In this document: positions 24,175 through 64,000 of the stretch, piece after piece
Position numbering within the stretch: position 1 is the first letter of the stretch
Layout: every line of letters begins with the position of its first letter
Assembly: GCA_903867985.1 (NCBI GenBank)
Contig: CAIPTO010000029.1
Coordinates: forward strand, 65-64,064
DNA length: 64,000 nt
DNA from: an uncultured Elusimicrobia bacterium
Lineage (GTDB): Bacteria; Elusimicrobiota; Elusimicrobia; Elusimicrobiales; UBA9959
Direction: 5' to 3'
The notes under the pieces: generated by a model
What the model was told of the DNA's origin: nothing
Seen by the model: only the letters and a program-made list of their open reading frames with translations
Databases searched by the model: none
Made by a program: the position numbers and the translations under genes

Positions 24175-24797
24175 ACTCCATGCGTATAATTGAAGACATC
24201 CGGACGGTATTCAGTGAGGATCCCGCGGCGCGCAGCTTCCTGGAAGTGCTCACCTGTTATCCAGGCCTTCATGCGGTATGGCTGCATCGCGTTTCGCACC
24301 GTCTCTGGACGCTGGGCCTGCGGTTGCCGGCGCGGCTTCTCTCGCAGATCGGTCGTGCCCTGACCGGCATTGAGATACACCCCGGCGCTACGATCGGCAG
24401 ACGCTTTTTTATAGATCACGGCATGGGTGTCGTTATCGGCGAGACTACTGAGATAGGGGACGATGTGCTGATGTATCAGGGCGTAGTAATGGGCGGCACC
24501 TCTCTGGAGAAAAAGAAAAGGCATCCGACCGTCGGTAACAAGGTCGTGATAGGAGCGGGGGCCATAGTTTTAGGAGCCATCGTCATCGGAGATCACGCCC
24601 GTATCGGCGCCGGCTCAGTAGTGCTGAAAGATGTGCCCCGCGACACCACTGTTTTCGGTATTCCCGCCAAGGCAAGGGACGGCGGCATCGGGGAAGCGGC
24701 TCAACTGGACCATAATAAACTTTTTGACGTCTGTGGTGAGGAGATAAAAGTTTTGCGCGCCGAAGTTGACGAGCTGAAGAAAAAGTTGGCAGACTAG
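24171..24797 (+). CDS. cysE: Serine O-acetyltransferase
   Basis: Hexapeptide repeats and [27 protein letters not shown] are present. It overlaps the upstream gene by ATGA. Confidence 0.9.
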
Positions 24798-24930
24798 CAG
24801 TCTGGAGGCACAGCCAACCAGCAACTTGGATGTAAAGCAATCCAGCAGTTTAGATACCAGGTAACTGGCAATTTAATTAACGCCAGGCCACTAAATTGCT
24901 TTACATCCAAACTGCTTTGCCTCTGAACCG
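24798..24930. repeat. Intergenic fold-back element, GGATGTAAAGCA word class
   Basis: TTGGATGTAAAGCAAT (24826-24841) pairs with ATTGCTTTACATCCAA (24895-24910). The element shares the boundary words GCAGTCTGGA and CTGCTTTGCCTCT with 32815-32945. Confidence 0.75.
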
Positions 24931-25894: not shown

Positions 25895-25962
25895 AGGACT
25901 GGAGGACTGGGGACCGCCCTACATGCTAATCCTCTAATCTTCTAATCTTCCAATCCTCTAAT
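25885..25962. repeat. Intergenic element, AGAGGACT / CYTCYAAT octamer class
   Basis: The left arm is (AGAGGACT)x3 and the right arm is CCTCTAAT CTTCTAAT CTTCCAAT CCTCTAAT. The cysK stop TAG (25892-25894) lies inside the left arm. Confidence 0.75.
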
Positions 25963-31685: not shown

Positions 31686-32839
31686 ACCTCGCACTGATCC
31701 TGCACGCGCTTTCAGTTAACAATGGCGTATCGCGGGTTGTCTTGTCGCATGCCCGGGAATTTTCCGCGGCGGGGCATGAGACCCATATTTATGCTTCCCG
31801 CCTGCTCCTGTCGGAAGAGGATAAAAAAAATATTCCTCATAACGTTTTTCTGCACAGGTTCCCCTGCCTGCGCGGATCCAACAGGATCTGGGCAACGCCT
31901 TTTGGGGCGCTTCTGCCGTTTCTTAATAGCAGTCATGATCTGGTTATCAGCCATCTGCTGACCGTCTGGCAGGATGTTATCGTAATGCATAACGATCCGC
32001 AGCCGGTGGAGGTGGAAAAGATGTCGCTCGTGCCGTTCACTATAGATCGGCCGCGACTGCGCACAAAAAACAGGTTCATACGGACTTTTATAGAGGGGAA
32101 GCGTTTTGCTCCGGAGCGCTATAAAAGCGTGGTGGCTTTTTCAGGGCGTTCCGCCGCAGAGATAGCCAGGGTATACGGTGTCCCCCATGAGCGGATAAGG
32201 AGGATACGGCACGGGGTTGACTCCTCGCGGTTTTCGCCGGCCTGGCGCATGGCCCGCCGCGCATCCGCGCGCTCGTCGCTGTCCCTGTCCTCCGACGAGC
32301 TTGCTTTTGTTTACATCGGCGATTCCTGGAAAGGGCTTGAATTCGCCATTAAGGGTATTGCCGCCGCCTGTTGCGGTAAAAAAAGCGTTCTCATAGCGTC
32401 CGGGCCTTTTCACGGAGAGCAATTCTCCGCCCTGGCAGGCGAACTGGGGTTAAAGCTGATCTGCAAAAATGATTGGTCCGATATACGCGATCTTTACAGC
32501 GCTGGAGACGTCTTTATAAATCCGACGCCCATGGACACTTTCGGTCTGGCGGCGCTTGAAGCGATGGCGATGGGGCTTGCAATAATTACCACCAAATATG
32601 CGGGGGTAAGCGAATTTTTTAAAGACGGAGAGAACGCTTTCATACTTGAATGTCCCTGGGATACGCAGGCGATCGCGGACATGGCCGATCGCCTTTGGGA
32701 TCCGGCTTTCAGGGATAGTGTCTCCTGCAGGGGCGCCGAACTGGCCGCCGGACTTTCCTGGGAGAAGCCGGCCCGTGACCACCTTGCGCTCTATCGGGAA
32801 ATAATAGAGGCAAGGCAGTCTGGATGTAAAGCAATTTAG
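31682..32839 (+). CDS. Glycosyltransferase family 4 (GT-B)
   Basis: The C-terminal GT1/GT4 motif is FGLAALEAMAMGLAIITT. It overlaps the upstream gene by ATGA, and its last 8 codons lie inside the repeat element. Confidence 0.8.
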   Translation: MNLALILHALSVNNGVSRVVLSHAREFSAAGHETHIYASRLLLSEEDKKNIPHNVFLHRFPCLRGSNRIWATPFGALLPFLNSSHDLVISHLLTVWQDVIVMHNDPQPVEVEKMSLVPFTIDRPRLRTKNRFIRTFIEGKRFAPERYKSVVAFSGRSAAEIARVYGVPHERIRRIRHGVDSSRFSPAWRMARRASARSSLSLSSDELAFVYIGDSWKGLEFAIKGIAAACCGKKSVLIASGPFHGEQFSALAGELGLKLICKNDWSDIRDLYSAGDVFINPTPMDTFGLAALEAMAMGLAIITTKYAGVSEFFKDGENAFILECPWDTQAIADMADRLWDPAFRDSVSCRGAELAAGLSWEKPARDHLALYREIIEARQSGCKAI

Positions 32840-32945
32840 CTGCGAGAAGCAAAGCCTATAGATGTAAAGCGGTCTAGCTAAATTGCCGGCCTGCTTTGCC
32901 TCTCGGTTGCTAGATCGCTTTGCATCTAAGTTGCTGAACTGCTGC
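32815..32945. repeat. Intergenic fold-back element, GGATGTAAAGCA word class
   Basis: TAGATGTAAAGCGGTCTAGC pairs with GCTAGATCGCTTTGCATCTA, and GAGAAGCAAAGC pairs with GCTTTGCCTCTC. It is the same family as 24798-24930. Confidence 0.75.
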
Positions 32946-38346: not shown

Positions 38347-38437
38347 AGAGGGCTGGAGGATTGGAAGACTAGAGGACTGGTTAACAAGGACGAACCTTAT
38401 GTCGTCAGTCCTAAACATGTTGGTCTTACTTTCCTCT
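38347..38437. repeat. Intergenic element, GGAGGAYTGG word class
   Basis: The left arm is CTGGAGGA TTGGAAGA CTAGAGGA CTGG. The right arm CAGTCCT...GGTCTT...TTCCTCT is partly complementary. The words match those at 25885-25962. Confidence 0.6.
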
Positions 38438-38473
38438 TTTAAAATCTGGTCACACTGCCTGCATCAGCTGTTT

Positions 38474-47284: not shown

Positions 47285-47325
47285 GAAGGGTATAGGGGTC
47301 AGGGGACAGGGTATAGAAACAGGGA
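47285..47325 (+). repeat. G-rich heptad array (orphan arm) with a G-quadruplex motif
   Basis: The units are GAAGGGT ATAGGGG TCAGGGG ACAGGGT ATAGAAA CAGGGA. The G4 motif is GGG-TATA-GGGG-TCA-GGGG-ACA-GGG. Confidence 0.7.
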
Positions 47326-51175: not shown

Positions 51176-51778
51176 ATGATCCAGACTGTGGTGCTTGCCA
51201 CCCGCAATAAGCATAAGTTGGGGGAAATACTGGACCTTATTCCCGGGCTTAATCTTATAATGAAGACGCTTGAAGATTTTCCCGGCGCTCCGGACGTGAT
51301 AGAGGACGGGGAAACTCTTGAAGCGAACGCGGTCAAGAAAGCGAAAAGTGCCGCTCTTTTCTGTGGCCTTTGGGCGCTCGCTGACGACACTGGGCTTTAT
51401 GTTGACGCGCTGGGGGGTGCCCCCGGTGTTTATTCTGCCAGGTATGCCGGCTCCGGATGCTCTTATACCGATAATAACCGTAAACTTCTTGGCGAACTTG
51501 CCGGTCTTGGACCGGAAAAGAGGACGGCTCGCTTCTGCTGCGTTATGGCGCTGTCTTCTCCTGGCGGTTCTGTGATAGCGGTCGAGGGCCGGCTTGAAGG
51601 CGTAATAGCGTCTGCCGCTTCTGGCACCGGCGGCTTCGGTTATGATCCGTTGTTTATCGTGGCGGGACTCGGCAAAACTTTGGCGGATATTACTGCTGAG
51701 GAGAAGAACGCTCTAAGCCATCGTGCCGACGCTATCAGGAAAATAACTCCCTGGCTGACAAGGCTTTCCGATAGCTAG
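51176..51778 (+). CDS. rdgB: Non-canonical purine NTP pyrophosphatase (RdgB/HAM1)
   Basis: Motifs ATRNKHKLGE, ADDTGL and GFGYDPLF are present. Confidence 0.9.
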   Translation: MIQTVVLATRNKHKLGEILDLIPGLNLIMKTLEDFPGAPDVIEDGETLEANAVKKAKSAALFCGLWALADDTGLYVDALGGAPGVYSARYAGSGCSYTDNNRKLLGELAGLGPEKRTARFCCVMALSSPGGSVIAVEGRLEGVIASAASGTGGFGYDPLFIVAGLGKTLADITAEEKNALSHRADAIRKITPWLTRLSDS

Positions 51779-51851
51779 TTGCGAGATACTACACTAGAAG
51801 CCCGTTGATCACGGATGTTTTGGGGTTGGTGACGCTCTGCGTCGCAGGCCC

Positions 51852-51880
51852 TTGACAAGTCAAGCAGTGTCTGCTATACT
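51852..51880 (+). promoter_or_regulatory. Consensus promoter (TTGACA-N17-TATACT)
   Basis: TTGACA lies at 51852-51857 and TATACT at 51875-51880. No CDS follows within about 250 nt. Confidence 0.6.
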
Positions 51881-51886
51881 TGGTGT

Positions 51887-52031
51887 AGCGAGCAACGATT
51901 CATGAGGGAGGCAAGTGAGCTCCTGGTGTGTTACGGGTGGCAGCCTGTAAGGTGTGACGCTCGCGCAGCGTACTGAGGGAACACGAAAAGGCGGTGTAGT
52001 GATAGCGATCTTTTCGTGTTTCCTTGTTTTT
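51887..52031 (+). ncRNA. Candidate small RNA (class unknown)
   Basis: It is bounded by the consensus promoter and an intrinsic terminator (14-bp stem 51977-51990/52010-52023 plus TTGTTTTT). An internal stem GCGAGC/GCTCGC is present. Confidence 0.5.
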
Positions 52032-52129
52032 ATTTATTCAGACCTGTTATAACCCAGTAGCTCCCGCGGTCTCCGTGCCTTATCGGCCTCGGGCTTTTTT
52101 CGCGGCGCCAATTAAATTATAATCTCCTT

Positions 52130-53770
52130 ATGAATAAAGCGGCACGATTGTCCGCGCTTCTGGCTTTTGGGCTTTTCTGGGCCTATGGCACTTTGGCCGC
52201 TTCTTCCGGCGCGCAGGGCCCCGCCACTGTCTGGGACCGCATAATGCAGGAGCAGAGCCTGATGAATTTGCGTAAGGGTTATCTGCTGATGGAAGCCGAG
52301 AAATATCCTGAAGCCGCCAACGAATTCCTTAAAGCCATCGCCAGGACTCCTTCGGAGCCTTATGCGCGCATTCTTTACGGGTCCAGTCTCTACTGGCTGG
52401 GCGATCCGGACAAGGCCATGGCGGAGTTCGCTGCAGCCGAGAAGCTGGACCCCGGCAATGCGGTCGCCTTTCAACTAATGGGCATAGTCCACGCCTGGAA
52501 AGGAGAATTCCAGCAGGCGCTCGCGAAATTCCTCAGGGCCAGGGATTTGGCCCGGGATCGGGCGGATGTCAGGATGAACATCGGATCCATATATCATTCC
52601 CTCGGAGATATGGATAAGGCTTTAGAGTATTTCAGAGAGGCGGTCAGGCTTGAGCCCGCCAATCCGCTCTACCTGTATCAGCTTGGCCTGCTCTACTCCA
52701 GACTGGGCCGCGTTTTCGAAGCCAAAGCCGCTTTCAGGAGCGCGTTGTCTTCGTTCCGGAATTACGAGGACGCTATGCTGGAACTGGCCGTTATGGAAGA
52801 GAAGGACGGCAACGATAAGGAGGCCGAGCGGTTATACCATAAGGCTCTGGATATAAAGCCTGGCGATAATGTCGCGCGCTTTCGTCTGGGCTGCCTGCTT
52901 TACAGGACGGGCGACGTGAAGCGCCTTGACGCTCTCTTGGAGGACGCCTTCCTCCTGACCCCGTCCAACGCGAAAGGCGGTATCTCCATCAGCCTTGCTT
53001 ACGCGGGCGACCCCGACCCGCAACCTGGCGGGGGGAAGCCAGGCTCTCTTGAGGACGCCGTGTCCAAGATCCCGGCCGATGAGGATGTTAATATAAAGGC
53101 TGAGTTTATCTCTATCCCGGAAACGCGCCTTGTGTTGCAGTCAGAAGGGAAACCGAAAACGCTCAAGGCTGGTCTGGAGCAGAATTTTAGGCGCCCGCAG
53201 GTAACTGTGTTCCGGCGCGAGTATTCCCTTCCTGCCTCCGATTTTAGGAATCGCAAAGCACGGGCCGCCCAGATCGCGGCTGAAATGGATAAAGCGATAA
53301 AGGCCGCGGCCCGGGAAGGACAGGACACGCGTATGTCCATAAATATCGAGACCAAGAAGGCCTCGCTGAGCGCCGCCGGCGGAGATCCAGGCGTTGTTTA
53401 TAAGCCGCGCGATGTCGGCAACGATATGGGTCTTTGGGTTATGGGGGCCAACTGGCTTGAGAATGTTGCGGATGCGCTTGAGGATATGCGGGAAGCTCCC
53501 GGCGGCGCCGCGCCGGATTTCAGACTGAGCATGCTGCGGGGGCTTGGCAGCCTTATCATGGGCGAACCGGACGCCGCGCTCGCGGATATGGATGGAGTGC
53601 AGGCCGGAGCGGCCGGGGATCTGGGGCGCTGTGCGGCCTGGGTGGAAAAGGGTTCACAGGAGAACGCCCTGGCGGCATGTTCGGACGCGCTCAGGAAAGA
53701 ACCGAAAAATAAGATCGCGTTAGCTAATAAAAAATGGCTGACACGGGGTCCGGAGAAGATCAAAAATTGA
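52130..53770 (+). CDS. Secreted TPR-repeat protein
   Basis: A signal peptide is followed by several TPR motifs (for example LGDMDKALEYFREAVRLEPAN). Confidence 0.65.
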   Translation: MNKAARLSALLAFGLFWAYGTLAASSGAQGPATVWDRIMQEQSLMNLRKGYLLMEAEKYPEAANEFLKAIARTPSEPYARILYGSSLYWLGDPDKAMAEFAAAEKLDPGNAVAFQLMGIVHAWKGEFQQALAKFLRARDLARDRADVRMNIGSIYHSLGDMDKALEYFREAVRLEPANPLYLYQLGLLYSRLGRVFEAKAAFRSALSSFRNYEDAMLELAVMEEKDGNDKEAERLYHKALDIKPGDNVARFRLGCLLYRTGDVKRLDALLEDAFLLTPSNAKGGISISLAYAGDPDPQPGGGKPGSLEDAVSKIPADEDVNIKAEFISIPETRLVLQSEGKPKTLKAGLEQNFRRPQVTVFRREYSLPASDFRNRKARAAQIAAEMDKAIKAAAREGQDTRMSINIETKKASLSAAGGDPGVVYKPRDVGNDMGLWVMGANWLENVADALEDMREAPGGAAPDFRLSMLRGLGSLIMGEPDAALADMDGVQAGAAGDLGRCAAWVEKGSQENALAACSDALRKEPKNKIALANKKWLTRGPEKIKN

Positions 53771-53807
53771 AGATTCAAAACTGGATTTGCGCATCGAGGA
53801 ACAATAA

Positions 53808-55241
53808 ATGAATGAGACATCGGATTTCAATTTCAGCGAAATAAAAAAAGCGTATTTTATAGGTATAGGCGGCATAGGCATGAGCGGAATTGCCCGTCTG
53901 CTGCTTAAAACCGGCGTGAAGGTAAGCGGGTCGGACCTGAAAGAATCGGAGATTACCAGGATACTGAAGGCTGAAGGCGCGCGGGTATTTATCGGGCACA
54001 GGATTTCCAATATCCTTGCCCCGCACTTTGGTTCGGGGCGTACGAGACAAAATGCAGGGGGCGATCCCGATGTGGTTGTGATAAGTTCCGCAATCAAAGC
54101 CGGAAATCCAGAACTTGCGGCTGCAGTGAAAAAAGGGATGAGGATCGTACCCCGGGCCCAGATGCTGGCCAAACTTGCCTCGTCCAAAAAAACCGTTACC
54201 GTCAGCGGTTCACACGGCAAGACCAGCACAACATCCATGCTCGCCTCGGCACTTGAAGGCGCGGGGGTGGACGCCACGGTCGTAGTCGGGGGATTGTTCA
54301 AAAATATAGGCTCGAATATTAAAATAGGCGCGGGTGAATATCTGGTGGCTGAGGCGGATGAGTCCGACGGATCTTTCCTTTATTTTAATCCGCTGGTTAC
54401 CTGTGTTACCAATATAGATTCCGATCACCTGGATTTTTACAAGGACATGACTAACCTTAAAACGGCATTTTTGGCGCATATTGCCAAGGTTCCTTTCTAT
54501 GGCGCGGCCGTTGTCTGCGCCGATGATCCAGGCGTGGCGTCCATTCTGGGCGCGGTTGAAACCACGCTTATAACTTACGGCTGCAGATCGGGCTCTGACT
54601 GGGTCGCTAAAAATCTGAAGTCCGGCCCGGCGGGGTTGGTTTATGACGCTTATTTCAGGGGTAAGAGGATGGGCCGGGTAGCGCTCAGGTCAGGCGGACG
54701 CCATAACGCCCTCAATTCTTTGGCCGCGCTGGCCGCCGGGCGCTACCTCGGTTTTGATTTTGCCGGACTTGTTAAGGGGCTTGCGAACTTTAAGGGCGTA
54801 AAGCGCCGTATGGAAAATATCGGTGAATATGCCGGGGTGACATTTTTGGATGATTACGGACATCATCCCACCGAAATAAAAGCAACTCTCGGGACCGTCC
54901 CGGAGATGTACAAGGGCCGGGGCAGGCTCATAGTCTTGTTCCAGCCTCACCGCTATTCCAGGACCGGAATTCTCCGGCGCGAATTCCCCGCCGCCTTCGA
55001 TCAGGCAGACCTTACTTATGTTATGGATATCTATGCCGCCGGAGAAAAGCCGCTGCCCGGAGTAACCTCGGAACTTATACTGGCCGGCCTGAAGGAACGC
55101 GGCCTTAAAGCGGAAAAATTCCCCGGCGCGATGGAGATAGCTAAGAACCTGCGGGCGGGAGATGTCCTGATTACTGTCGGGGCCGGCGATGTTTGGAAGT
55201 TCGGCGAAGAGATAAAACTGAAGTTGCAAACAATATGTTAG
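53808..55241 (+). CDS. murC: UDP-N-acetylmuramate--L-alanine ligase
   Basis: FIGIGGIGMSGIARLL, the GSHGKTSTTSM P-loop and the Mur ligase C-terminal domain are present. Confidence 0.95.
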   Translation: MNETSDFNFSEIKKAYFIGIGGIGMSGIARLLLKTGVKVSGSDLKESEITRILKAEGARVFIGHRISNILAPHFGSGRTRQNAGGDPDVVVISSAIKAGNPELAAAVKKGMRIVPRAQMLAKLASSKKTVTVSGSHGKTSTTSMLASALEGAGVDATVVVGGLFKNIGSNIKIGAGEYLVAEADESDGSFLYFNPLVTCVTNIDSDHLDFYKDMTNLKTAFLAHIAKVPFYGAAVVCADDPGVASILGAVETTLITYGCRSGSDWVAKNLKSGPAGLVYDAYFRGKRMGRVALRSGGRHNALNSLAALAAGRYLGFDFAGLVKGLANFKGVKRRMENIGEYAGVTFLDDYGHHPTEIKATLGTVPEMYKGRGRLIVLFQPHRYSRTGILRREFPAAFDQADLTYVMDIYAAGEKPLPGVTSELILAGLKERGLKAEKFPGAMEIAKNLRAGDVLITVGAGDVWKFGEEIKLKLQTIC

Positions 55242-55324
55242 GGTAGAGGGGATAGGGTTGAGGGTAAAGTTATAAGGAGCTCCTTACCCTGAACCCTAAA
55301 CCCTAAACCCTGAACCCTTACCCT
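55240..55324 (+). repeat. Intergenic heptad fold-back element, GGGT/ACCC class, with a G4 motif
   Basis: The left arm is GGGTAGA GGGGATA GGGTTGA GGGTAAA, the apex palindrome is TAAGGAGCTCCTTA, and the right arm is CCCTGAA CCCTAAA CCCTAAA CCCTGAA CCCTTA CCCT. It fills the entire murC-rsmA spacer. Confidence 0.8.
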
Positions 55325-56098
55325 ATGCCTAAATACAGTCAGGTTTTTTTGAAGGACGCCGGGTTGTGCGAAGATATCGCCACAGCTCTCGGACCGGAGG
55401 AGTTCGGTTTGGGCGTGGAGATCGGCCCGGGGCGTGGCGCCCTTACGGAATTTCTCTATCCGTTGTGGGGAAATAAGTTTTCAGCGGTGGAAATAGATCC
55501 ACTGATGACGGCCCGCATAAAGGAGAAATTCCCTGGCGTACGGATAATAAATTCTGATTTTCTGACCCTTGACCTGGAGACGGTTTTACCCGCAGGAACG
55601 GCGGCGTTCATCGGTAATCTGCCGTACGAATGCTCCACTGCCATACTTATGAAAGTGCTGGCTTTCAGCCGTGTGGGCGCCGCGGTGTTCATGTTCCAGA
55701 GAGAGGTGGCAAGGAAAATAACCGCGCTCACGGGAGATTCAGATTACGGTTACCTGTCAGTAGCCGTCCAGTCCCAGAGCGAGGCTGCGCTGCTGGTGGA
55801 TGTGCCGGCCGCCAGTTTCACCCCGGTCCCGAAGGTGGATTCTTCGGTGCTTGTCTTCAAGCCGCGGCCGACTTTCCTCACGGTCGAACGACGGCAATAT
55901 TTTCTCAATTTCGTGAAAAACGCTTTCTCGCACCGGCGCAAGACGTTGGCCAATTCTCTGTCACTTGGCCTGGGTGCGGATAAGGAAGAAGTTTATAACC
56001 GCATCAAGGCCGCCGGTTTCAACCCCGGCCTGCGGCCGCAGAACCTCTCGCTGGAGGATTACCTCAGCCTTTCAGCCGCTTTCGCGGGCGGAAAGTAA
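55325..56098 (+). CDS. rsmA: 16S rRNA (adenine1518/1519-N6)-dimethyltransferase
   Basis: SQVFLKD, the EIGPGRGALT SAM motif and GNLPY are present. Confidence 0.9.
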   Translation: MPKYSQVFLKDAGLCEDIATALGPEEFGLGVEIGPGRGALTEFLYPLWGNKFSAVEIDPLMTARIKEKFPGVRIINSDFLTLDLETVLPAGTAAFIGNLPYECSTAILMKVLAFSRVGAAVFMFQREVARKITALTGDSDYGYLSVAVQSQSEAALLVDVPAASFTPVPKVDSSVLVFKPRPTFLTVERRQYFLNFVKNAFSHRRKTLANSLSLGLGADKEEVYNRIKAAGFNPGLRPQNLSLEDYLSLSAAFAGGK

Positions 56099-56218
56099 TT
56101 CGTTATGATGCGCAGTGCGCGGATATCGAACTGCATATAATTGTAAAGTGGTATAATTGAGGAGATCTCAAAACTGAGATTATAAGGTAAGGTTAGGGAT
56201 CCCGCTAAATGGACAGCT

Positions 56219-57256
56219 ATGAACATACATGAGAAACGTTTACACGATCTGCAGTGCCTCCTGAAAAAAGAAAAACTTGACGCAATAGTCCTTTCCAGGC
56301 CGCTGGAACAGGTTTTTTTTACCGGATTTCGCATGGACGGAATGGTTATGCTTGTTTCCAGGAGTTCAGCCTGGGCTTTCATGCCTAAGATGCTCCTTGA
56401 CCAATTCAAGTCGAAGGTGTCTTTCTTCAGCGCAGCTGCCCCGGAAAGTCTGCTGGAGGCGGTGATCCTGAAAATGAGGGACGGAAAATTTAAGAAAACT
56501 ATTTTTGAGCCGGAAACCGAAACTTATTTGCGGGGCCGGTTTTGGCGGAAGAAAGGTCTTTCTGAATTTAGAGGCCTTACGGCAGGTCTGCGATTGGTTA
56601 AAGAGGGGGAGGAGATTTCCATATTGCGCCAATCCTGCCGGATTGCAGCCAAGGCTTTCGGAATAATAAAACCGAGGATAAAAACCGGCCGCACGGAGGT
56701 TTCCGTTTCCAGGGAACTTGAGGACATCATGCAGGCCATGGGCGCCAGGGGGCCCAGCTTCAGCCTGATAGTGGGATTCGGGCCGGATTCCGCGTTGCCC
56801 CATCACGACACATCCGCCAGGCCGCTCGGGGCAAACGAGGCGGTGCTGCTGGATTTCGGCTGCGTGTATAACGGCTACTGTTCCGATATCACCAGGACTT
56901 ATTTCCACGGCAAGCCGGACAAAGAATTTAAAAAAATATATTCAATCGTTGAGGCCGCCCAAAAGGCCGGCGTCAAGAAAGTCAGGGCCGGAGTTAAAGC
57001 TGCCGAAGTTGATAAGGCCTGCCGCGATTATATCTCGGATGCCGGGTTCGGCCAGTATTTTATCCACGGCACCGGACACGGCGTGGGCCTCGAGATCCAT
57101 GAGGCTCCGACTCTGAACACTAAATCCAGGGATACGCTCCGGGCGGGCATGGCTGTCACGGTGGAACCCGGCATTTATCTGCCCGGGAAGTTCGGAGTGC
57201 GCATAGAGGATTCAGTGCTGGTTAAAAAAGGCGGATGCGAAATTTTAACAAAGTAG
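56219..57256 (+). CDS. M24 family Xaa-Pro aminopeptidase/dipeptidase
   Basis: HGTGHGVGLEIHEAP and VEPGIY are present, together with the metal ligands of the pita-bread fold. Confidence 0.85.
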   Translation: MNIHEKRLHDLQCLLKKEKLDAIVLSRPLEQVFFTGFRMDGMVMLVSRSSAWAFMPKMLLDQFKSKVSFFSAAAPESLLEAVILKMRDGKFKKTIFEPETETYLRGRFWRKKGLSEFRGLTAGLRLVKEGEEISILRQSCRIAAKAFGIIKPRIKTGRTEVSVSRELEDIMQAMGARGPSFSLIVGFGPDSALPHHDTSARPLGANEAVLLDFGCVYNGYCSDITRTYFHGKPDKEFKKIYSIVEAAQKAGVKKVRAGVKAAEVDKACRDYISDAGFGQYFIHGTGHGVGLEIHEAPTLNTKSRDTLRAGMAVTVEPGIYLPGKFGVRIEDSVLVKKGGCEILTK

Positions 57257-57331
57257 GCATCAGGCTGCGGATCACAAGTTTCGGGCAATAGAAAGTTGCT
57301 GCCTGAAACCCTGCACCCGTAACCTGAAGCC
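57256..57331 (+). repeat. Intergenic heptad fold-back element
   Basis: The left arm is GGCATCAGGCTGCGG. The reverse complement of the right arm is GGCTTCAGGTTACGG. The right arm units are GCCTGAA ACCCTGC ACCCGTA ACCTGAA. Confidence 0.6.
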
Positions 57332-57352
57332 GACATCTTAGCAGGAGGAAAC

Positions 57353-57916
57353 ATGATTATATTAACGATAGTGCTTCTTGCGGTTGTTATGTGGGTGGTT
57401 TTAATATTCAACGGCCTGATTAAACTTCGTAACCAGGTGGCTAACGCTTTTAAGCAGATAGACGTGCAATTGAAGCGGCGTTATGACCTTATCCCCAATC
57501 TGGTAAATTCCGTAAAAGGCGAGATGAAATTCGAGCAGTCCACTCTGGAGAAAGTCATACAGGCCCGCGCAGCGGCGATGAACGCGGGAGCCGCCGGGAA
57601 TATGAACGAAATTCTGGCTAAGGAAGGTATGCTTACCCAGGCCCTGGGCAAGCTTATAGCCCTCACGGAGAACTATCCCAACCTTAAGGCCAATGAATCA
57701 GTCAAGCCCCTTATGGAAGAACTGACGCACACTGAGAACCAGATCGGTTTCGCCAGGCAGTTCTATAACGATATCGTTACCAAGTTCAATACTGAACAGC
57801 AGGTTTTCCCGAACAATATGTTCGCGGCTATGATGGGCTTTTCGTCCGCGGTTCTGTTTGAGCTTCCTCAGGATTCTGCGGACAGGGAAGTTCCGAAAGT
57901 GGACCTTGCGGTATAA
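57353..57916 (+). CDS. lemA: LemA family protein
   Basis: An N-terminal TM helix is followed by the LemA core (RYDLIPNLV...ENYPNLKA...ENQI..AR..YN). Confidence 0.9.
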   Translation: MIILTIVLLAVVMWVVLIFNGLIKLRNQVANAFKQIDVQLKRRYDLIPNLVNSVKGEMKFEQSTLEKVIQARAAAMNAGAAGNMNEILAKEGMLTQALGKLIALTENYPNLKANESVKPLMEELTHTENQIGFARQFYNDIVTKFNTEQQVFPNNMFAAMMGFSSAVLFELPQDSADREVPKVDLAV

Positions 57917-57921
57917 CAAAA

Positions 57922-58000
57922 AGGGCATAGGGTATGGGGTTTAGGGTATAGTTATAAAAACTTCACCCTAGACCTGCTGCCCTGACCTCTGAACCCTAAC
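57922..58000 (+). repeat. Intergenic heptad fold-back element, GGGT/ACCC class, with a G4 motif
   Basis: The left arm is AGGGCAT AGGGTAT GGGGTTT AGGGTAT, and the right arm is CACCCTA GACCTGC TGCCCTG ACCTCTG AACCCTA. It ends 2 nt before the next ATG. Confidence 0.75.
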
Positions 58001-58002
58001 TG

Positions 58003-59064
58003 ATGAACATCTACGAGCAGCAGGCCAGGAACAGGCGCATGACTTGGGGAATCATGTTCGTTTTTGTCGTTTTTTTTCTTGTAATCGGAATGGGTTTTGA
58101 TTTTTTCTACCTGAGGTTTAGTCCGCTAAAGGCGCCCGCTTACAAGTGGAATTCTTTAGGTTACTACGAAGCCTCCGTAGCCTCCCAGCCGGTGCCTTAC
58201 GGCACCATTTTTGCCCTGCTGATAGGCTTAGGGATGGTGGCCAACAGTATGGTGAACGGAGCCAAAATGGTGCTGCGTTCCACACAGGCTCGTCTTGCCG
58301 TGCCCACGGATGAAAAAGAACGCCAGTTCATTAATGTGGTCGCGGAAATGTCAACAGCTTCAGGGTTACAGCGGCCGCAGGCGTATATAGTTCCGGACGC
58401 CGACCTTAACGCTTTCGCAGCCGGGATAAATCCGGGAAACGCGGTGATCGCCGTTACCGAGGGACTTTTGAGTTCGCTCAACAGGGAGGAGCTGCAGGCA
58501 GTAGTGGCCCATGAGATGAGCCATATTAAAAATTACGACATGCGCCTTATGACGGTGTCGGCTGCTCTGATGGGCGCTATAGCTCTCTTAAGCGATCTGG
58601 CTGGCCGGACCATGCGCCCCCGCTATGGTTCTTCTCTGTCTGGTTCCTCCTCCGTGCCAGGATCTTCTTCCGGGGGGCGTAAAAGCGGAGGCGGGGTGCT
58701 CATGCTGGTCGTTTTCGTGCTCTGGCTGCTGCTGGTGGTTCTGGCGCCGCTTATCTCGCGCATGCTGGCCATGGCTATTTCCCGCGAACGGGAATATCTG
58801 GCCGATGCTTCCGGCGCCGAACTTACGCGCAATCCCCTGGCTCTGGTGTCCGCGCTCGAGAAGATCCGCGCTGCCGTAACGCCGACCTACTCAATTAATA
58901 ACGGCGTTGCGCATATGTGCATCACGGATCCGCGCGGCAGCCTGATAGAGGAAAAAATGGGCCTTGCGGCCGACCTGTTCGCCACGCATCCTCCCATGCA
59001 AAAAAGGATACTCGCTTTAAAAGTTATGGCTTATCAGAATGCCAGGGTGGAGGGTAGAGGGTAG
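58003..59064 (+). CDS. M48 family peptidase, HtpX-like, with a Ser/Gly-rich insert
   Basis: HEMSHIKNYD is the zinc motif. The protein has TM helices and is paired with lemA. Its last 7 codons lie inside the repeat. Confidence 0.85.
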   Translation: MNIYEQQARNRRMTWGIMFVFVVFFLVIGMGFDFFYLRFSPLKAPAYKWNSLGYYEASVASQPVPYGTIFALLIGLGMVANSMVNGAKMVLRSTQARLAVPTDEKERQFINVVAEMSTASGLQRPQAYIVPDADLNAFAAGINPGNAVIAVTEGLLSSLNREELQAVVAHEMSHIKNYDMRLMTVSAALMGAIALLSDLAGRTMRPRYGSSLSGSSSVPGSSSGGRKSGGGVLMLVVFVLWLLLVVLAPLISRMLAMAISREREYLADASGAELTRNPLALVSALEKIRAAVTPTYSINNGVAHMCITDPRGSLIEEKMGLAADLFATHPPMQKRILALKVMAYQNARVEGRG

Positions 59065-59125
59065 AGGTTTGAGGGTTGAGAAGTATTATCCAACCCTATA
59101 CCCTACACCCTAACCCCTATACCCT
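59044..59125 (+). repeat. Intergenic heptad fold-back element, GGGT/ACCC class
   Basis: The left arm is CCAGGGT GGAGGGT AGAGGGT AGAGGTT TGAGGGT, and the right arm is CAACCCT ATACCCT ACACCCT AACCCCT ATACCCT. Confidence 0.8.
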
Positions 59126-59142
59126 GATTTGAGGAGAACGAC

Positions 59143-59718
59143 ATGATAACATCTACGCAGTTCAAAGAAGGCACGATATTTACCAATGAGAACGGGCAGA
59201 TAGTGGAAGTGCTGACCTATCAGCACCATCGCAAGTCGCAGGCCCGGGCCGTGGTAAGAGTTAAACTCCAGAACCTTGAAACCGGCGCTATTATCGAAAC
59301 CACCTACCGCCCCGAAGATAAATTTAAGGATGTGATGGTGGAAAAACGGCCCAAGACCTACCTTTATAGCGACGGCACGCTCGCACATTTTATGGATAAC
59401 GTAAGTTTCGAACAGGCCGGTCTGCCCATGTCCAAGATAGGGCCCTTGATGCAGTTCCTTACGGAAAACATGGAGGTGGAGGGCCTTTACCTCAACGATA
59501 AATTCTTCAACATCGCGCTGCCTGCCAATATCGTTATGACCATAACCGAGACCGTTGACAGTGTGAAGGGCGACACGGTTTCCAACGTGATGAAGGACGC
59601 CAAGGTCAACACAGGACTGGCGATAAAGGTCCCGATGTTCATTAAAGAGGGGGACAAGGTCCGCGTGGATACCCGCACTTTTGAGTATCTTGAAAGAGTG
59701 ACAGAGCCTAAAAGATAG
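59143..59718 (+). CDS. efp: Elongation factor P
   Basis: The N-terminal KOW-like domain and the VKLQNLETG block are present, in a 191-aa protein with a strong SD (GAGGAG). Confidence 0.9.
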   Translation: MITSTQFKEGTIFTNENGQIVEVLTYQHHRKSQARAVVRVKLQNLETGAIIETTYRPEDKFKDVMVEKRPKTYLYSDGTLAHFMDNVSFEQAGLPMSKIGPLMQFLTENMEVEGLYLNDKFFNIALPANIVMTITETVDSVKGDTVSNVMKDAKVNTGLAIKVPMFIKEGDKVRVDTRTFEYLERVTEPKR

Positions 59719-59820
59719 TGACGAGTGTGTAGCGGGAGGGCAGGAATGTTTTCTTCTCTGCGTACGGCTTACTGCGTGCGCGGCGCACTTGTAGCTTATG
59801 GCAACAGACTTTGAGAAATT

Positions 59821-60507
59821 ATGATTAAAGCCGTTATTTTTGATATCGACAATACCCTGATGGATTTTATGCGCATGAAGCGCGCCTCGGTGGATGCGGC
59901 AGTGGATGCAATGCTTGATGCGGGCCTGCCCATGAAGAAGGAGAAGATGTACGAGTCGATCTTTGAGACCTACTGGAAAGAAGGCATCGAAGATCAGAAT
60001 ATATTTGACAAGGTCCTGGTTAAGGAATTCGGGGCGGTAGATTACAGGATCCTGGCGGCCGGAATCATTGGTTACAAGCGGGCTAAAGAAGGCCACATGA
60101 CGCTGTATCCGCGCGTAAAACTCACCCTCACCGAGCTTATGAAGAGCGGTATAAAAATGGGAGTGGTTTCCGACGCGCCGCGCCTGTCGGTCTGGCTGCG
60201 CATCGTTGCGCTGGGGTTGCATCATTATTTTGAGCATATAGTCACTTTTGAAGACACCGGGGAACGTAAGCCATCCCCGAAGCCGTTCAAGAAAATATTG
60301 GGCCTGCTGGCGGTTTCGCCGCAGGAGGCCGTTATGGTCGGAGATTGGGCGGAGCGGGACATCAAAGGCGCCAAGGCCCTTGGCATCCGCACAGCCTGGG
60401 CTAAGTACGGCAACGAGTTTGACACCAAGGTCTCCGGCGCGGATTATGAGCTGGACGATATATACGATATGGTCAGGATAATTCGGAAAATAAATGAAAA
60501 AAAATAA
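59821..60507 (+). CDS. HAD-superfamily hydrolase (subfamily IA-like)
   Basis: Motif I is IFDIDNTLMDF and motif IV is MVGDWAERDIKGAK. Confidence 0.8.
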   Translation: MIKAVIFDIDNTLMDFMRMKRASVDAAVDAMLDAGLPMKKEKMYESIFETYWKEGIEDQNIFDKVLVKEFGAVDYRILAAGIIGYKRAKEGHMTLYPRVKLTLTELMKSGIKMGVVSDAPRLSVWLRIVALGLHHYFEHIVTFEDTGERKPSPKPFKKILGLLAVSPQEAVMVGDWAERDIKGAKALGIRTAWAKYGNEFDTKVSGADYELDDIYDMVRIIRKINEKK

Positions 60508-61066
60508 ATTCCCGGCCTGTATTGCGGCGGTTCTTATCCTGTCTGCTCTAAACGCCGGTGCGCTTGAAATAACCGCCGCGGCCCCCGCGGCCACGGAAAA
60601 AGGGAAAGCCGCTGATTTTGTTTTTTCAGGGTCCGTCATAGTGAAAAATATCGCTTTTGAAAAAGGCGCGGTCGTCATGCCGGTTACCGAATACAAGGAC
60701 AGGGTTTATACGGACATAAGGCTGTTGTCTAAATCTCTTTACGAAAAGTTGGGGGCTTGTTTTTCCGAAAAAAAGTGCGACTATGCCGGTAAGGCCGCGA
60801 AGCCAAAGCTTTCAGTTTTGGAGGTTAAGCCTCTAAAATCCAAAGCCCGGGTGGCCAATGTGATATTGGCTTTTGACGGAGATCTGTCGGTCACTTTCGG
60901 CGTTATTAAGAAGGTTTCAGGCGAACTCTGGGCGGCTTATCCGGCTAATTTTGAGGTAAAGGATCCTCTTCTTAAGGATTTGATTGAAAATAAAGTCAAA
61001 GAGGCCTTCAATAGCGCGTTCCGGTCTGATAAACGAGCCGGCGGCGCCGCGGTCGTTAAGAAGTAA
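60494..61066 (+). CDS. Hypothetical secreted protein (possible tandem SpoVG-like fold)
   Basis: A signal peptide is present. Two segments weakly resemble the SpoVG core (VIVKNIAFEKGAVVMPV...YTDI). This call is very tentative. Confidence 0.4.
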   Translation: MKKNKFPACIAAVLILSALNAGALEITAAAPAATEKGKAADFVFSGSVIVKNIAFEKGAVVMPVTEYKDRVYTDIRLLSKSLYEKLGACFSEKKCDYAGKAAKPKLSVLEVKPLKSKARVANVILAFDGDLSVTFGVIKKVSGELWAAYPANFEVKDPLLKDLIENKVKEAFNSAFRSDKRAGGAAVVKK

Positions 61067-62689
61067 ATGAAAAACCACTTGTTTCCCCGGATATCTGTTT
61101 CAGCATTTTTTCTGATTATTCTCTGCGTTCCCGCAGCCTTCGCCTTGAGAACGGAATATCTGCCGGCTTCCGGCCCTGCCGCCGCTCCGGCCGCAGGTGA
61201 AGCGGGGCGCGGACGTGAGGTCGCCTCCGGGCGGGCTCTGGTGAAGTTTTCGCCTGAAATATCATCTTCCGCTAAACGCGAGCTTTTGAGCGCTGCCGGT
61301 TTTGAATTGGTCAGGGATTTTAAATCAATAGGATGGGCAGTGGTTAAATTGCCGCAGGGGAGCAGCGTGGCCGCGTCCTTGCCGGCGCTGAGGGCTCTTG
61401 CCGGAGTTCTGGCCGCGGAGCCGTCCGGCGTCTACCGTGCCGCGAAAGTGCCAATAGATACGTATCGGGCGGAACAATACGGGCTGGCCAGGATCGACGC
61501 TTTCAGAGCCTGGGATATTGAGACCGGGTTCTCCAATCTGGTAACCGTGGCTGTTCTTGATACAGGGATAGACGGTTCGCATCCGGATCTTCTGCCAAAA
61601 CTGTCCGGAACAAGCCAGTTCTTTGACCCGGATAACGAGGGTGCTCAGACGACGAATGATCCGCCCACGCCGGCGTGCTCCCACGCCACCAAAGTCGCGG
61701 GCATAGCGGCCGCCGTTTCAGATAATTCCTACGGTATCGCCGGCATGTCCTGGGGGGCGCGCCTGCTGTCGCTTAAAGTATTTAGCGACGCCGACTGCAT
61801 GCCCGACTGTTCTGACAGGGCCGGGGCCAGCTTCTGCAGTACCGATGACACCGCTATAATCAGTGCGATTGATTATGCCGCAGATCAGCAGGATTCCCCG
61901 GCAACAGGTAAAATAGTGCTGAATATGAGCCTTGGGCAGCATACATTTTGCAGCGCCTCTCTCCAATCTTCGGTTGATAATGCTGTCAGCCGGGGACTGG
62001 TGCTGATAGCTGCCGCCGGCAATAATTCCGGCAGCGTGGATTCTCCGGCCAACTGTCTGAATGTGATACCGGTCGGCGCTACGGATATAAACGACAACAT
62101 CGCCTACTTCTCGGGCAGGGGTGCGGAAATGCTGAGCCGTGGCGTTACCGCTCCCGGAGTAGGTATTTTTTCTACCTCTCCCGGTCCCGGCGTAGTTTCC
62201 GACTCCGGAACCTCGTTCTCTTCCCCGCTGGTTGCCGGTTTGGCAGCTTTAATAATCTCCACCCGGCCCGTGCTGTCTCCTTCCGAGGTTGGGGATATTA
62301 TCAGAAATTCCGCCGATGAACGCGGAGCGGCCGGGCCGGATCCGATTTACGGTTTCGGACGTATTAACGCTTATAAAGGGCTGCTTCTGGCCGTGAATAA
62401 TAGCTCTTCCACTTTTATCCCATCTGCGACGCAGGTCAGGGCCTACGCCTTCCCCAGCCCGTACAAACCGGGCGCAGGCCTGCTTTCCTTTGTTGTCCCG
62501 GATGCAATAGCCGGCACGAGCCTGGTGATAACCATCTATACTGCCGAGGGGGAGGAAATAAATAAAATTTCCACGCGGACCTGGGACGGACATACTGAGG
62601 CCGGCCGCGTAGCGGCCAGCGGCGTATATCTGTTCTTCATGAAGACTGAAAAGGGCACGGCAAAGGGGAAATTCGCCCTGCTGCGGTAA
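61067..62689 (+). CDS. S8 family (subtilisin-like) serine peptidase, secreted
   Basis: The catalytic triad contexts are VAVLDTGID, HATKVAGIAA and GTSFSSPLVAGLAAL. A C-terminal beta-sandwich-like tail follows. Confidence 0.85.
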   Translation: MKNHLFPRISVSAFFLIILCVPAAFALRTEYLPASGPAAAPAAGEAGRGREVASGRALVKFSPEISSSAKRELLSAAGFELVRDFKSIGWAVVKLPQGSSVAASLPALRALAGVLAAEPSGVYRAAKVPIDTYRAEQYGLARIDAFRAWDIETGFSNLVTVAVLDTGIDGSHPDLLPKLSGTSQFFDPDNEGAQTTNDPPTPACSHATKVAGIAAAVSDNSYGIAGMSWGARLLSLKVFSDADCMPDCSDRAGASFCSTDDTAIISAIDYAADQQDSPATGKIVLNMSLGQHTFCSASLQSSVDNAVSRGLVLIAAAGNNSGSVDSPANCLNVIPVGATDINDNIAYFSGRGAEMLSRGVTAPGVGIFSTSPGPGVVSDSGTSFSSPLVAGLAALIISTRPVLSPSEVGDIIRNSADERGAAGPDPIYGFGRINAYKGLLLAVNNSSSTFIPSATQVRAYAFPSPYKPGAGLLSFVVPDAIAGTSLVITIYTAEGEEINKISTRTWDGHTEAGRVAASGVYLFFMKTEKGTAKGKFALLR

Positions 62690-62696
62690 CAACAGG

Positions 62697-62728
62697 GTTT
62701 AGGGCCAGGTAGGGTATGGAGATGAGGA
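62697..62728 (+). repeat. G-rich heptad array (orphan arm)
   Basis: CAGGGTT TAGGGCC AGGTAGG GTATGGA GATGAGG lies between the S8 peptidase and DUF192 genes. Confidence 0.5.
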
Positions 62729-62737
62729 AATTTGCGC

Positions 62738-63076
62738 ATGATATTTTTTAATAGAACCCGAAACGCAGTCGCGGCTGTAAAGGTGATCAAGGCCGATACT
62801 TTTAGTTCCAGATTGTTCGGGCTTATCCCGCGTAAAACGCTGGAACCGGAAGAAGGCTTGTGGCTGGACCCTTGCGCCATGATCCATACCTGCTTTATGA
62901 GCTTCCCGATAGACGCCGTTTTTCTTGATGCCGGTCTTAAGGTCGTGAAAGTCGTCCCGTCACTAAAGCCCTGGAGATTTTCTCCCTGGGTTTACGGGGC
63001 TAAAAGCGTGCTGGAGCTGGCTCCGGGCAGCGCGTCCGCAGTTCTGTCTGAGGGTGATTTTATGGAAGTCAGGTAA
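62738..63076 (+). CDS. DUF192 (COG1430) family protein
   Basis: RLFGLIPRKTLEPEEGLWLDPCAMIHTCFMSFPIDAVFLD matches my recollection of the DUF192 core. I preferred the ATG at 62738. Confidence 0.7.
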   Translation: MIFFNRTRNAVAAVKVIKADTFSSRLFGLIPRKTLEPEEGLWLDPCAMIHTCFMSFPIDAVFLDAGLKVVKVVPSLKPWRFSPWVYGAKSVLELAPGSASAVLSEGDFMEVR

Positions 63077-63125
63077 TTTTTGATTTGTAATAGGTTCGTA
63101 ATAAAATTATAATTATAAGTTGATT

Positions 63126-64000
63126 ATGCTGCCAGCCAAGGGTTTACAGAGAAGAAAGAATATCAGAGAGATACTGATAGAGGGCGGTCTTGTCCCCGAA
63201 GACAGCATCAAAGCCGCGGAAGAACTCGCTGAAAAAGAGGATAAAACGCTTCAGCAGACGCTGACAGAGATGAAGCTTATCGACGAGGTTAAGCTTCTGA
63301 AAGTCATGGCTGACGAGTGGGGGTTTAAAGCCGTAGACCTCTCCAAGATGGAAGTGCCCAGAGAGACGGTTCAGAGCCTGCCGGAGTCTATCGCCATGCG
63401 CCAGGTCTGCGTGCCTTTCGCGCTCCAGGACAATGTGATGTTTCTGGCGATGTCCGACCCCCGCGATTTTCTGGTTGTGGAAGATATCGGGCTCAGGACA
63501 GGCCTTGAGGTTAAGGTTTTTCTGGCTTTGCCCCAGGGCATAAATAAAATTCTGGACAGTGTGTACGGCAAGGCCGACGCCGCCCAGGTCGATCAGCTTG
63601 TTGAATCCGTCACCCAGGCCGCGCCTAAAAAACCGGGTGAGGAAGAATCTTTTTCCCTGGCCGACGAGGCCGAGAAAAAGGACATCAGTGATGTGGACGC
63701 GAACGCCCCCGAAGTTGAGCGTCTCGTCAACGCCATAATATTGGGCGCTCTTAATATCAAGGCCTCCGATATTCACGTGGAACCTTTTGAAGATCCCAAC
63801 GGAAAGAATTCCAAGGTCATGATACGCTATCGGGTTGACGGTATGCTCCGGGCCGCCTCTTTTTCAGTGCCGTGGGCTTACCGGCAGGCCATCACCGCCA
63901 AGATAAAGATCATGACCAATTCCATGAATATCACTGAGCGGCGTATCCCCCAGAGCGGACGCATACAGATCATCGCCAAGGGCAACCCTATAGAATTCCG
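63126..64000 (+). CDS. Type II secretion / type IV pilus assembly ATPase (GspE/PilB), 5' partial, runs off the window
   Basis: By my own translation, the N-terminal GSPII_E-N domain (VCVPFALQDNVMFLAMSDPRD) is followed by ASDIHVEP, RYRVDGML and ITERRIPQSGRI. This ORF is absent from the track because no stop codon falls within the window. Confidence 0.85.
   Translation, partial: MLPAKGLQRRKNIREILIEGGLVPEDSIKAAEELAEKEDKTLQQTLTEMKLIDEVKLLKVMADEWGFKAVDLSKMEVPRETVQSLPESIAMRQVCVPFALQDNVMFLAMSDPRDFLVVEDIGLRTGLEVKVFLALPQGINKILDSVYGKADAAQVDQLVESVTQAAPKKPGEEESFSLADEAEKKDISDVDANAPEVERLVNAIILGALNIKASDIHVEPFEDPNGKNSKVMIRYRVDGMLRAASFSVPWAYRQAITAKIKIMTNSMNITERRIPQSGRIQIIAKGNPIEF

Follow-up and report, generated by a model that had tools for sequence, protein, structure and literature searches.

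Heptamer-armed palindromes between co-directional genes of an uncultured Elusimicrobia bacterium: probable intercistronic RNA hairpins with incidental G-quadruplex motifs

The DNA analysed here, called the window throughout, is a stretch of 64,000 nucleotides (64 kb) from an uncultured Elusimicrobia bacterium (contig CAIPTO010000029.1, positions 65 to 64,064), and its G+C content is 52%. Towards its end lies a block of co-directional housekeeping genes, identified with Pfam, which encode in order a TPR protein, MurC, KsgA/RsmA, an M24 peptidase, LemA, an M48 (HtpX-like) peptidase, elongation factor P (EF-P, gene efp), an HAD hydrolase, a protein with no Pfam domain, and a subtilase. The gene order from murC to the HAD gene is kept in 25 related loci, and the relatives of LemA in the genome collection come almost all from metagenome-assembled genomes of Elusimicrobia. 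Three spacers of this block, those of murC/ksgA, lemA/M48 peptidase, and M48/efp, are filled from stop codon to start codon by imperfect hairpins of ~85 nt with arms of tandem heptamers, and these elements, numbered 1 to 3, and the G-quadruplex (G4) motifs in their G-rich arms are the subject of this report.

All three elements have the layout (AGGGTNN)4-6, apex, (NNACCCT)4-6 (Table 1), and Tandem Repeats Finder reports a period of 7 in both arms, with 4.3-5.3 copies. The stop codon of the upstream gene is located 0-6 nt from the G-rich arm (G arm) or inside it, and the flanking genes are co-directional; in element 3, for example, the stop codon of the M48 open reading frame (ORF), TAG 59062-59064, falls within the G arm. 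Downstream, the C-rich arm (C arm) of element 2 is followed by AACTG and then by the M48 ATG at 58003, with no Shine-Dalgarno sequence, while in element 3 a Shine-Dalgarno sequence, GAGGAG (59131-59136), stands between the C arm and the efp ATG at 59143. The apex of the family is often ATAAGGAG-N-CTCCTTA, of which the 5' half in element 1 is Shine-Dalgarno-like and the 3' half anti-Shine-Dalgarno-like; in elements 2 and 3 this apex is absent or degenerate. The bases between the cores of an arm contain TAG, TGA, and TAA, and the 7-nt period closes all three frames, with stop triplets on the sense strand of the elements at 7.8 per 100 nt versus a background of 3.6. None of the elements has a U tract, and neither a terminator scan over 52000-64000 nor a promoter scan places a site inside them. 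Public gene calls (L201, L202, L204) begin the M48 peptidase at 58039, 36 nt downstream of the ATG at 58003, yielding a protein of 341 rather than 353 aa. The ATG at 58003, directly past the C arm, is nevertheless supported, because the N-terminus MNIYEQQ is conserved across the clade.

Table 1. Heptamer-armed elements 1-3, their relatives with other arm types, and lone arms (window coordinates)
Feature	Position	Strand	Description
Element 1, murC stop codon	55239-55241	+	TAG; overlaps the first unit of element 1
Element 1, G arm	55240-55267	+	four AGGGT/AGGGG units; includes G4 motif 55241-55264
Element 1, apex	55272-55286	+	perfect palindrome ATAAGGAG-CTCCTTA
Element 1, C arm	55286-55324	+	six ACCCT units; abuts ksgA ATG 55325-55327; no Shine-Dalgarno sequence between
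Element 2, G arm	57922-57951	+	four units; G4 motif 57923-57946; begins 6 nt past lemA stop codon 57914-57916
Element 2, C arm	57965-57997	+	five units, two degraded to CCT
Element 3, G arm	59044-59078	+	five units, one degraded to AGGTT; weaker G4 motif 59045-59075
Element 3, C arm	59092-59125	+	five units; opposite-strand G4 motif 59101-59124
GCCATAA element	15772-15867	+	(GCCATAA)5, apex TAAGGAAAATCCTTA (15811-15825), (TTATGGC)n; between an ABC-F gene and typA/bipA
Octamer element	25886-25962	+	(GAGGACTG)n, then (CTAATCCT)n; G-U-rich; between a pyridoxal-phosphate (PLP) enzyme gene and anmK
Second octamer copy, degenerate	38348-38440	-	GAGGACTG family; apex AAGGACGAACCTT (38386-38398); upstream of rpsU
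Loosely heptameric hairpin	57254-57334	+	fills the M24 peptidase/lemA spacer; RNA -36.1 kcal/mol, z -5.25
Lone heptamer arm	47287-47316	-	between two minus-strand genes; abuts ATG 47280; no partner arm
Lone G arm, degenerate	62694-62718	+	AGGGTTT AGGGCC..AGGGTAT; between the subtilase gene and a DUF192 gene (ATG 62738)

A reading made from the sequence alone had drawn attention to the G arms as canonical G4 motifs, each with a C-rich complement downstream, and had suggested a hairpin/G4 switch. As a statement about the sequence, this is correct: the G arms qualify as canonical G4 motifs, each pairable with a C arm behind it (55286-55324, 57965-57997, and 59092-59125), so that alternative pairing is possible. 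The motif of element 1, GGG-TAGA-GGGG-ATA-GGG-TTGA-GGG, lies exactly where it had been placed, and that of element 2, GGG-CATA-GGG-TAT-GGGG-TTTA-GGG, begins as read but ends at 57946 rather than 57947. The motif of element 3, GGG-TGGA-GGG-TAGA-GGG-N11-GGG, had been called weaker, and it is, because one of its loops is 11 nt long; under a strict rule (four G3+ tracts, loops of 1-7 nt) the first two motifs pass and the third fails. The suggested check with a G4 predictor, here G4Hunter run in 25-nt windows, gives 1.80, 1.68, and 1.48 for G arms 1 to 3, and -1.76 for the third C arm. It had also been noted that the G arm is on the mRNA-sense strand at all three loci. This is true but automatic for any palindrome of the form G arm, loop, C arm, because its reverse complement is again G-arm first, whichever strand is transcribed; for palindromic elements, therefore, the identity of the G-rich strand with the sense strand carries no information. 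Paired elements of the AGGGTNN type in the window and five relatives have the G arm first in 11 of 11 cases.

These motifs are not in themselves what makes the loci unusual. By the regular expression G3+N1-7, the window holds 5 G4 motifs on its two strands, a count not above chance (3.3 +/- 1.9 in Markov-1 simulations), and |G4Hunter| reaches at least 1.5 at 23 regions. The array pattern AGGGTNNAGGGTNNAGGGT, with up to 2 mismatches, has 15 matches in the window versus 0.12 expected, a number reached by 0 of 100 shuffles. Since the array is far above chance and the G4 count is not, the non-random object is the heptamer palindrome. Its G arm contains four G3 tracts because an arm of 28-40 nt made of AGGGT cores necessarily holds them, and, read on the opposite strand, the C arm is just as much a G4 motif. 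At least five AGGGTNN loci are present in the window, and more copies are found in L001, L004, L006, L016, and L033.

The C arm of element 1 had been likened to a plant-type telomere repeat. It has just two units of perfect CCCTAAA (55294-55307), with CCCTGAA units to either side, and is the complement of AGGGTNN; as a mixed CCCTGAA/CCCTAAA arm between murC and ksgA, with no long uniform array, it was rejected as a telomere repeat, and the resemblance is coincidental. A metagenome scan with AGGGTNNAGGGTNNAGGGT returned 120 loci, chiefly telomere-like (TTTAGGG)n and unrelated G-rich arrays, and the real telomere-like arrays among them differ from this arm. Hairpins of G arm and C arm were only a handful in that scan (L082, L096, L121, and L178).

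The same design of stop codon, hairpin, and start codon occurs in the window in three copies with arms that are unable to form a G4, namely the GCCATAA element and the two octamer copies. An AAGG...CCTT apex palindrome is common to the copies at 15772 and 38348, i.e., to two of the three elements without G tracts, and the sequence TAAGGAR-N-TCCTTA is found only at the apices of such elements, in the window, L001, and L016. Similar elements occur at other loci of L001, L006, L014, L016, and L033, and further arm types are seen in relatives: a GTAAGTC type in L014, and the GCCATAA type at a non-orthologous site of L001. Thus, the architecture needs no G tracts. In addition, all 12 of the hairpin elements or arms lie in co-directional gaps, and none lies between convergent genes.

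Single arms also occur. The lone heptamer arm at 47287-47316 is C-rich on the mRNA, and the plus strand there reads as a G4 motif (47288-47311). At the junction that carries the degenerate lone G arm of the window, between the subtilase and DUF192 genes, the L033 orthologue has a lone G arm of five units followed by AAGGAG, and the L001 orthologue has a full hairpin. Two further arrays, long and uniform, are without an inverted partner in relatives: in L015, 89-242 holds ~20 units of GACTCCC/GACTCTC, and in L006, (GGGATGA)7 is located at 410-454, close upstream of a gene start.

When folded as RNA, elements 1 to 3 form hairpins of -43.7, -35.5, and -42.8 kcal/mol, with z = -5.1, -4.5, and -5.2 against dinucleotide shuffles, in which 5-bp AGGGU:ACCCU helices are separated by 2x2 internal loops. 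The hairpin still wins when the G4 energy terms of ViennaRNA are added to the folding of the three full-length elements. A G4 is predicted only for the isolated G arm, at -8.4, -8.4, and -2.5 kcal/mol for elements 1 to 3, and consequently it could exist only transiently, before the C arm has been transcribed. The hairpins that single-stranded DNA would form are much weaker, at about -13 to -19 kcal/mol with z of -2.4 to -3.7, a difference that favours a role at the level of RNA. It should be noted that in a window-wide folding scan of 100-nt segments, energy alone does not set the elements apart at 52% G+C.

The orthologous junctions in related genomes provide a second line of evidence. Between lemA and M48, a spacer-filling hairpin is present in 17 of 26 loci, counting spacers of 50 nt or more with a folding energy of -25 kcal/mol or lower, and the remaining junctions are short or overlapping, e.g., TAATG in L006. 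The sequences of these hairpins are unrelated: five loci have AGGGTNN arms, L014 has another heptamer, and elsewhere the hairpin is plain GC-rich. Even so, the main stem starts -10 to +13 nt from the stop codon (one at +28) and ends -3 to +9 nt from the ATG across the 17 loci, so that essentially the whole spacer is spanned. At murC-ksgA, the gap is -28 to +16 nt in 10 of 16 loci, TGATG overlaps included, and the 19 M48-efp loci are in mixed states. No lineage has a Shine-Dalgarno sequence before the M48 peptidase gene, while efp always has one. The sequence-only reading had made conservation of the G tracts in orthologous elements a test of the switch. At the level of loci the switch does not pass this test, since at these junctions the hairpin is common and the G4 motif is rare: it is found on the sense strand in 3 of 26 loci at lemA-M48 (the window, L033, and L001), in 1 of 16 at murC-ksgA (the window only), and in 2 of 19 at M48-efp, to which the weaker motif of the window may be added.

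Turnover at these sites is rapid. L033 is the closest relative, with an EF-P that is 99.5% identical, yet at M48-efp it carries a different hairpin element of 180 nt, which includes a 34-nt exact match to window 24891-24924 and a 37-nt match (95%) to 32805-32841. Because these stretches are common to two spacers of the window, the L033 element belongs to another dispersed family. This third family of dispersed hairpins, of the type GATGTAAAGC...CTAAATTGC, is thus represented at window 24891-24924 and 32805-32841 and at L033 1376-1567, and the spacers at 24891 and 32805 themselves form long hairpins (24789-24880 and 32850-32935). At lemA-M48, a palindrome, GGGGACACCATGCCGCATGGTGTCCCC, is present in L011 (10580-10640, doubled) and in L012 (2005-2030), which suggests that these two have a REP-like family of their own (REP, repetitive extragenic palindrome).

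Within the population itself, several public metagenome assemblies hold contigs that are identical or 99.2% identical to the window. Five independent assemblies of this one population are identical across the elements, with no unit-number polymorphism seen; these assemblies therefore say nothing about slippage, and the arrays are not visibly hypervariable. One contig from another sample, L201, matches the window exactly along 5.3 kb apart from 42 substitutions, which crowd into 320 nt of the M24 peptidase gene (window 56239-56557), and this cluster looks like a recombination tract.

Dispersed, fast-evolving, heptamer-armed palindromes therefore sit exactly between co-directional stop and start codons. 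The reading that fits these observations best, to which a probability of roughly 0.55 is assigned, is that the three loci are dispersed intergenic palindromes that work as an RNA hairpin, comparable to REP sequences and to the short tandemly repeated repetitive (STRR) sequences of cyanobacteria, and that their G4 motifs are incidental. In this model, the elements would be transcribed within a polycistronic mRNA and would act, or be tolerated, as a long RNA hairpin. Insertion of an element into a formerly overlapping stop/start junction would leave the two codons ~85 nt apart in sequence, but the folded hairpin would place the upstream stop and the downstream start side by side at its base. Coupling, or re-initiation of a downstream gene without a Shine-Dalgarno sequence, could thereby persist. 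REP hairpins block 3'-to-5' exonucleases and stabilise mRNA, and in a similar way the hairpin could shield the upstream mRNA from such nucleases.

Several results count against this model or leave parts of it without help. First, the role at the level of RNA is something we infer from sequence and predicted folds. The sense strand is the more stable one in 10 of 17 elements, but the difference is small and inconsistent. At minimum energy, elements 1 and 2 fold with 12-13 nt left single-stranded immediately ahead of the ATG; because the extra units of the C arm free these nucleotides, the start codon needs no unmasking. Among five homologous lemA-M48 elements, 1 of 19 pairs shows a double change, and the covariation term is +1.68, a comparison that says little, as the AGGGT/ACCCT cores do not change and the repeats can be aligned in more than one register. 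The preference for co-directional gaps is only suggestive (p ~0.04), given that co-directional gaps make up 29 of the 38 that are 55 nt or longer. In addition, lone G arms occur on the sense strand (62694 in the window, 5134 in L033, 9025 in L001, and 410 in L006), and in these a G4 would face no competitor. Tract integrity in the AGGGTNN arms, judged by eye, is 47 intact to 3 broken for G3 and 43 to 7 for C3, which is not significant; 6 of the 7 C3 breaks are changes of CCC to CCT. A better preservation of G3 than of C3 would be predicted by a G4 role, but also by tolerance of G-U pairs on the sense strand or by a transcription-linked C-to-T bias. Finally, a good Shine-Dalgarno sequence is absent from about half of the window genes. 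Translational coupling consequently gains little from its absence at ksgA and M48, and this absence was rejected as a special feature of the two genes.

A selfish or neutral origin is a strong rival to the RNA-hairpin model, and is regarded as possible rather than probable. Here, the elements would be functionless palindromes that arose by mobility (as REP, REPIN, or elements like miniature inverted-repeat transposable elements) or by slippage, and that accumulated in permissive spacers, where an insert that folds on itself and contains many stop codons would be nearly harmless. The roughly twofold excess of stop triplets on the sense strand is in keeping with this, as are the lone and degenerate arms, the spread of several arm families over non-orthologous loci in several genomes, the lineage-specific presence or absence of elements at junctions that are tight in most relatives, and the different element that the closest relative has at M48-efp. 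However, no gene for a transposase or a REP-associated tyrosine transposase (RAYT) was found among the window ORFs, 64 kb being a small sample, and neither target-site duplications nor defined ends were seen in the elements. Nor does the identity of the five assemblies over the elements reveal the changes in unit number that slippage might leave. Above all, the presence of a hairpin at lemA-M48 in 17 of 26 lineages, despite differing sequences, looks like selection for a hairpin at that site.

It is unlikely that the elements are terminators or attenuators, either as intrinsic terminators that lack a U tract or through a C arm that serves as a Rho loading site and is masked by the G arm. Stable hairpins do stand directly past stop codons, and C-rich, G-poor stretches with regularly spaced YC dinucleotides, such as the sequences of the C arms, resemble Rho utilisation sites. 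Yet the U tract is missing and the terminator scan is blank at the elements, which are part of a conserved cluster of co-directional genes, abut the next start codon, and are never found between convergent genes, and this genome uses textbook terminators with a GC stem and U tract elsewhere in the window, at convergent gene ends. The terminator reading was therefore rejected.

A more elaborate version of the RNA-hairpin model, in which the element is a modular intercistronic device, is unlikely as a whole. The hairpin would bridge the stop codon to a start without a Shine-Dalgarno sequence and so restore coupling at junctions that overlap in relatives, and other features would tune re-initiation: the stops in three frames within the arms, the apex that mimics a Shine-Dalgarno/anti-Shine-Dalgarno pair, and the heptamer arms that can shift register. 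With the G arm always 5', a transient G4 that formed there during transcription could slow the closing of the hairpin, and such a delay could tie coupling to K+ concentration or to the speed of transcription.

The proposal with which this analysis began, a regulatory hairpin/G4 switch in RNA or DNA that is K+-dependent or set co-transcriptionally and controls the flanking genes, is not supported and appears quite improbable. The motifs are canonical by regular expression, with G4Hunter scores of 1.7-1.9, G3 tracts are seldom broken within the AGGGTNN family, related heptamer repeats give a G4 in vitro by circular dichroism (PMC4692102), and with the G arm transcribed first in all 11 paired AGGGTNN elements tabulated, a kinetic G4 is conceivable. 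However, complete elements fold as hairpins, which are ahead of the G4 by about 30-35 kcal/mol; siblings with arms unable to form a G4 share the architecture; and relatives keep hairpins at the orthologous junctions rather than G tracts. Furthermore, element 3 has a broken tract and an 11-nt loop, and the C arm of the elements, like that of any AGGGT/ACCCT palindrome, offers an equal G4 motif on the other strand. RNA G4s have also been reported to be depleted and poorly tolerated in bacteria.

Least probable of all is an array for a protein that binds RNA or DNA through the AGGGU/ACCCU cores or the AAGGA apex loop, such as S1, a GGA-binding protein of the CsrA type, or a DNA-binding dimer that recognises TAAGGA...TCCTTA as a palindrome: the apex palindrome is conserved across differing arms and several genomes, the heptamers are regularly spaced, and TAACTGA repeats upstream of starts have been proposed as regulator sites (PMC4679880), but no protein emerged as a candidate, elements 2 and 3 have a degenerate apex or none, and the cores are buried in the stem.

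Other structured features of the window lie outside the elements. With Rfam 15 at the gathering score, two tRNAs are the sole matches in the window, and at E <= 1 nothing matches within 51700-59300, the stretch that includes elements 1 to 3. The 351-nt gap between a Ham1-family gene and the TPR gene holds a candidate small RNA of ~150 nt (51852-52035), with a promoter close to consensus (TTGACA at 51852-51857 and TATACT at 51875-51880, 17 nt apart) and, at its end, a strong terminator in which TTGTTTTTATTT comes after GGGAACACGAAAAG...CTTTTCGTGTTTCC; the gap as a whole folds at -137.5 kcal/mol and has no Rfam match at E <= 1. Another dispersed family is a GC-rich hairpin repeat of ~100 nt, CCAGCCATGGGACCCATCGGGCCTGCG..., which occurs at 12521-12640 and 13592-13733, on both sides of a second M48 gene (12703-13512, minus strand), and again, at 88% identity, in the ksgA-M24 spacer of L006 (8729-8826). 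The tRNA at 1687-1757 has a hairpin of very high stability (-53 to -60 kcal/mol) beside it, at 1611-1710; there, an inverted copy of the 3' part of the tRNA flanks a GC stem that has U and A tracts and resembles a terminator, and the structure could be the remnant of an integration site or a bidirectional terminator.

Heptamer-repeat hairpins of this kind in Elusimicrobia were not found described in a literature search of incomplete coverage. Nevertheless, close parallels exist. Rehm et al. (2015; PMC4692102) reported G-rich heptamers in Xanthomonas (GGGAATC) and Nostoc (GGGGA(C/T)T), which sit in intergenic spacers, mostly between aligned ORFs, come to within 50 bp of a stop codon or overlap it, have a mode of four units, and in about 40% of cases form convergent inverted pairs of G and C arms. 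The formation of a G4 by these heptamers was observed by circular dichroism, and a competition between stem-loop and G4 was discussed (PMC4692102). The Elusimicrobia elements share with this class the tandem 7-nt units with a G3-4 tract, at least four in number and with a period of 7; the setting between co-directional genes, with the stop codon at or inside the G arm; and the convergent G/C stem-loop pairs, which are present at all three loci. They differ from it in the unit, which is AGGGT plus two variable bases (e.g., GGGTAGA or GGGTTTA) rather than GGGNATC or GGGGA(C/T)T, in a hairpin that fills the whole spacer from stop to start and often has an AAGGAG/CTCCTT apex, in the phylum, and in the presence, within the same genome, of sibling elements with arms incapable of forming a G4. 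With every architectural feature of the class shared, the Elusimicrobia elements join the known class of heptamer-repeat intergenic hairpins, and the idea of a hairpin in competition with a G4 is not new, having been raised for Xanthomonas and Nostoc (PMC4692102).

Similar comparisons can be made with three other systems. Tandem heptamers upstream of starts are known as the TAACTGA repeats of Beggiatoaceae, Cyanobacteria, and Bacteroidetes, for which a post-transcriptional role has been proposed (PMC4679880). These too lie a few nucleotides upstream of start codons, often of genes without a ribosome-binding site, but they are direct repeats with a single inverted case, and they have neither a hairpin nor G tracts. 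REP sequences and their composites (bacterial interspersed mosaic elements, REPINs; PMC3116915) resemble the Elusimicrobia elements as dispersed, genome-specific imperfect palindromes in operon spacers that turn over rapidly; REPs are also transcribed as hairpins, as the Elusimicrobia elements would be. However, REPs are single palindromes of ~20-40 nt with a GTAG head and are mobilised by RAYTs, whereas the Elusimicrobia elements have tandem-heptamer arms, their copies share only core and apex, and GTAG is present only inside GGGTAGA units; no RAYT gene (IS200/IS605-like, Y1) was found in the 64 kb examined. A further parallel is offered by the STRR heptamer hairpins of cyanobacteria, as between hupS and hupL, for which transcript stabilisation or translation coupling has been proposed (PMC2670836). 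There, as here, tandem 7-bp repeats form a hairpin between neighbouring genes; the unit sequences and the taxon differ, STRR units are not generally G4-forming, and the roles in both systems are only proposed.

The case carries a caution and an opportunity. Matches to G4 patterns in bacterial intergenic DNA can follow trivially from tandem repeats that have a G core and build hairpins. At the same time, the comparative series offered by this gene cluster is unusually clean, since one conserved cluster has, depending on the lineage, either overlapping codons or unrelated hairpins at the same junctions. The lemA-M48 and murC-ksgA series could thus be used to test the old proposals of mRNA stabilisation and translation coupling in a group of hairpins that, known from Xanthomonas and cyanobacteria, is now seen in Elusimicrobia as well.

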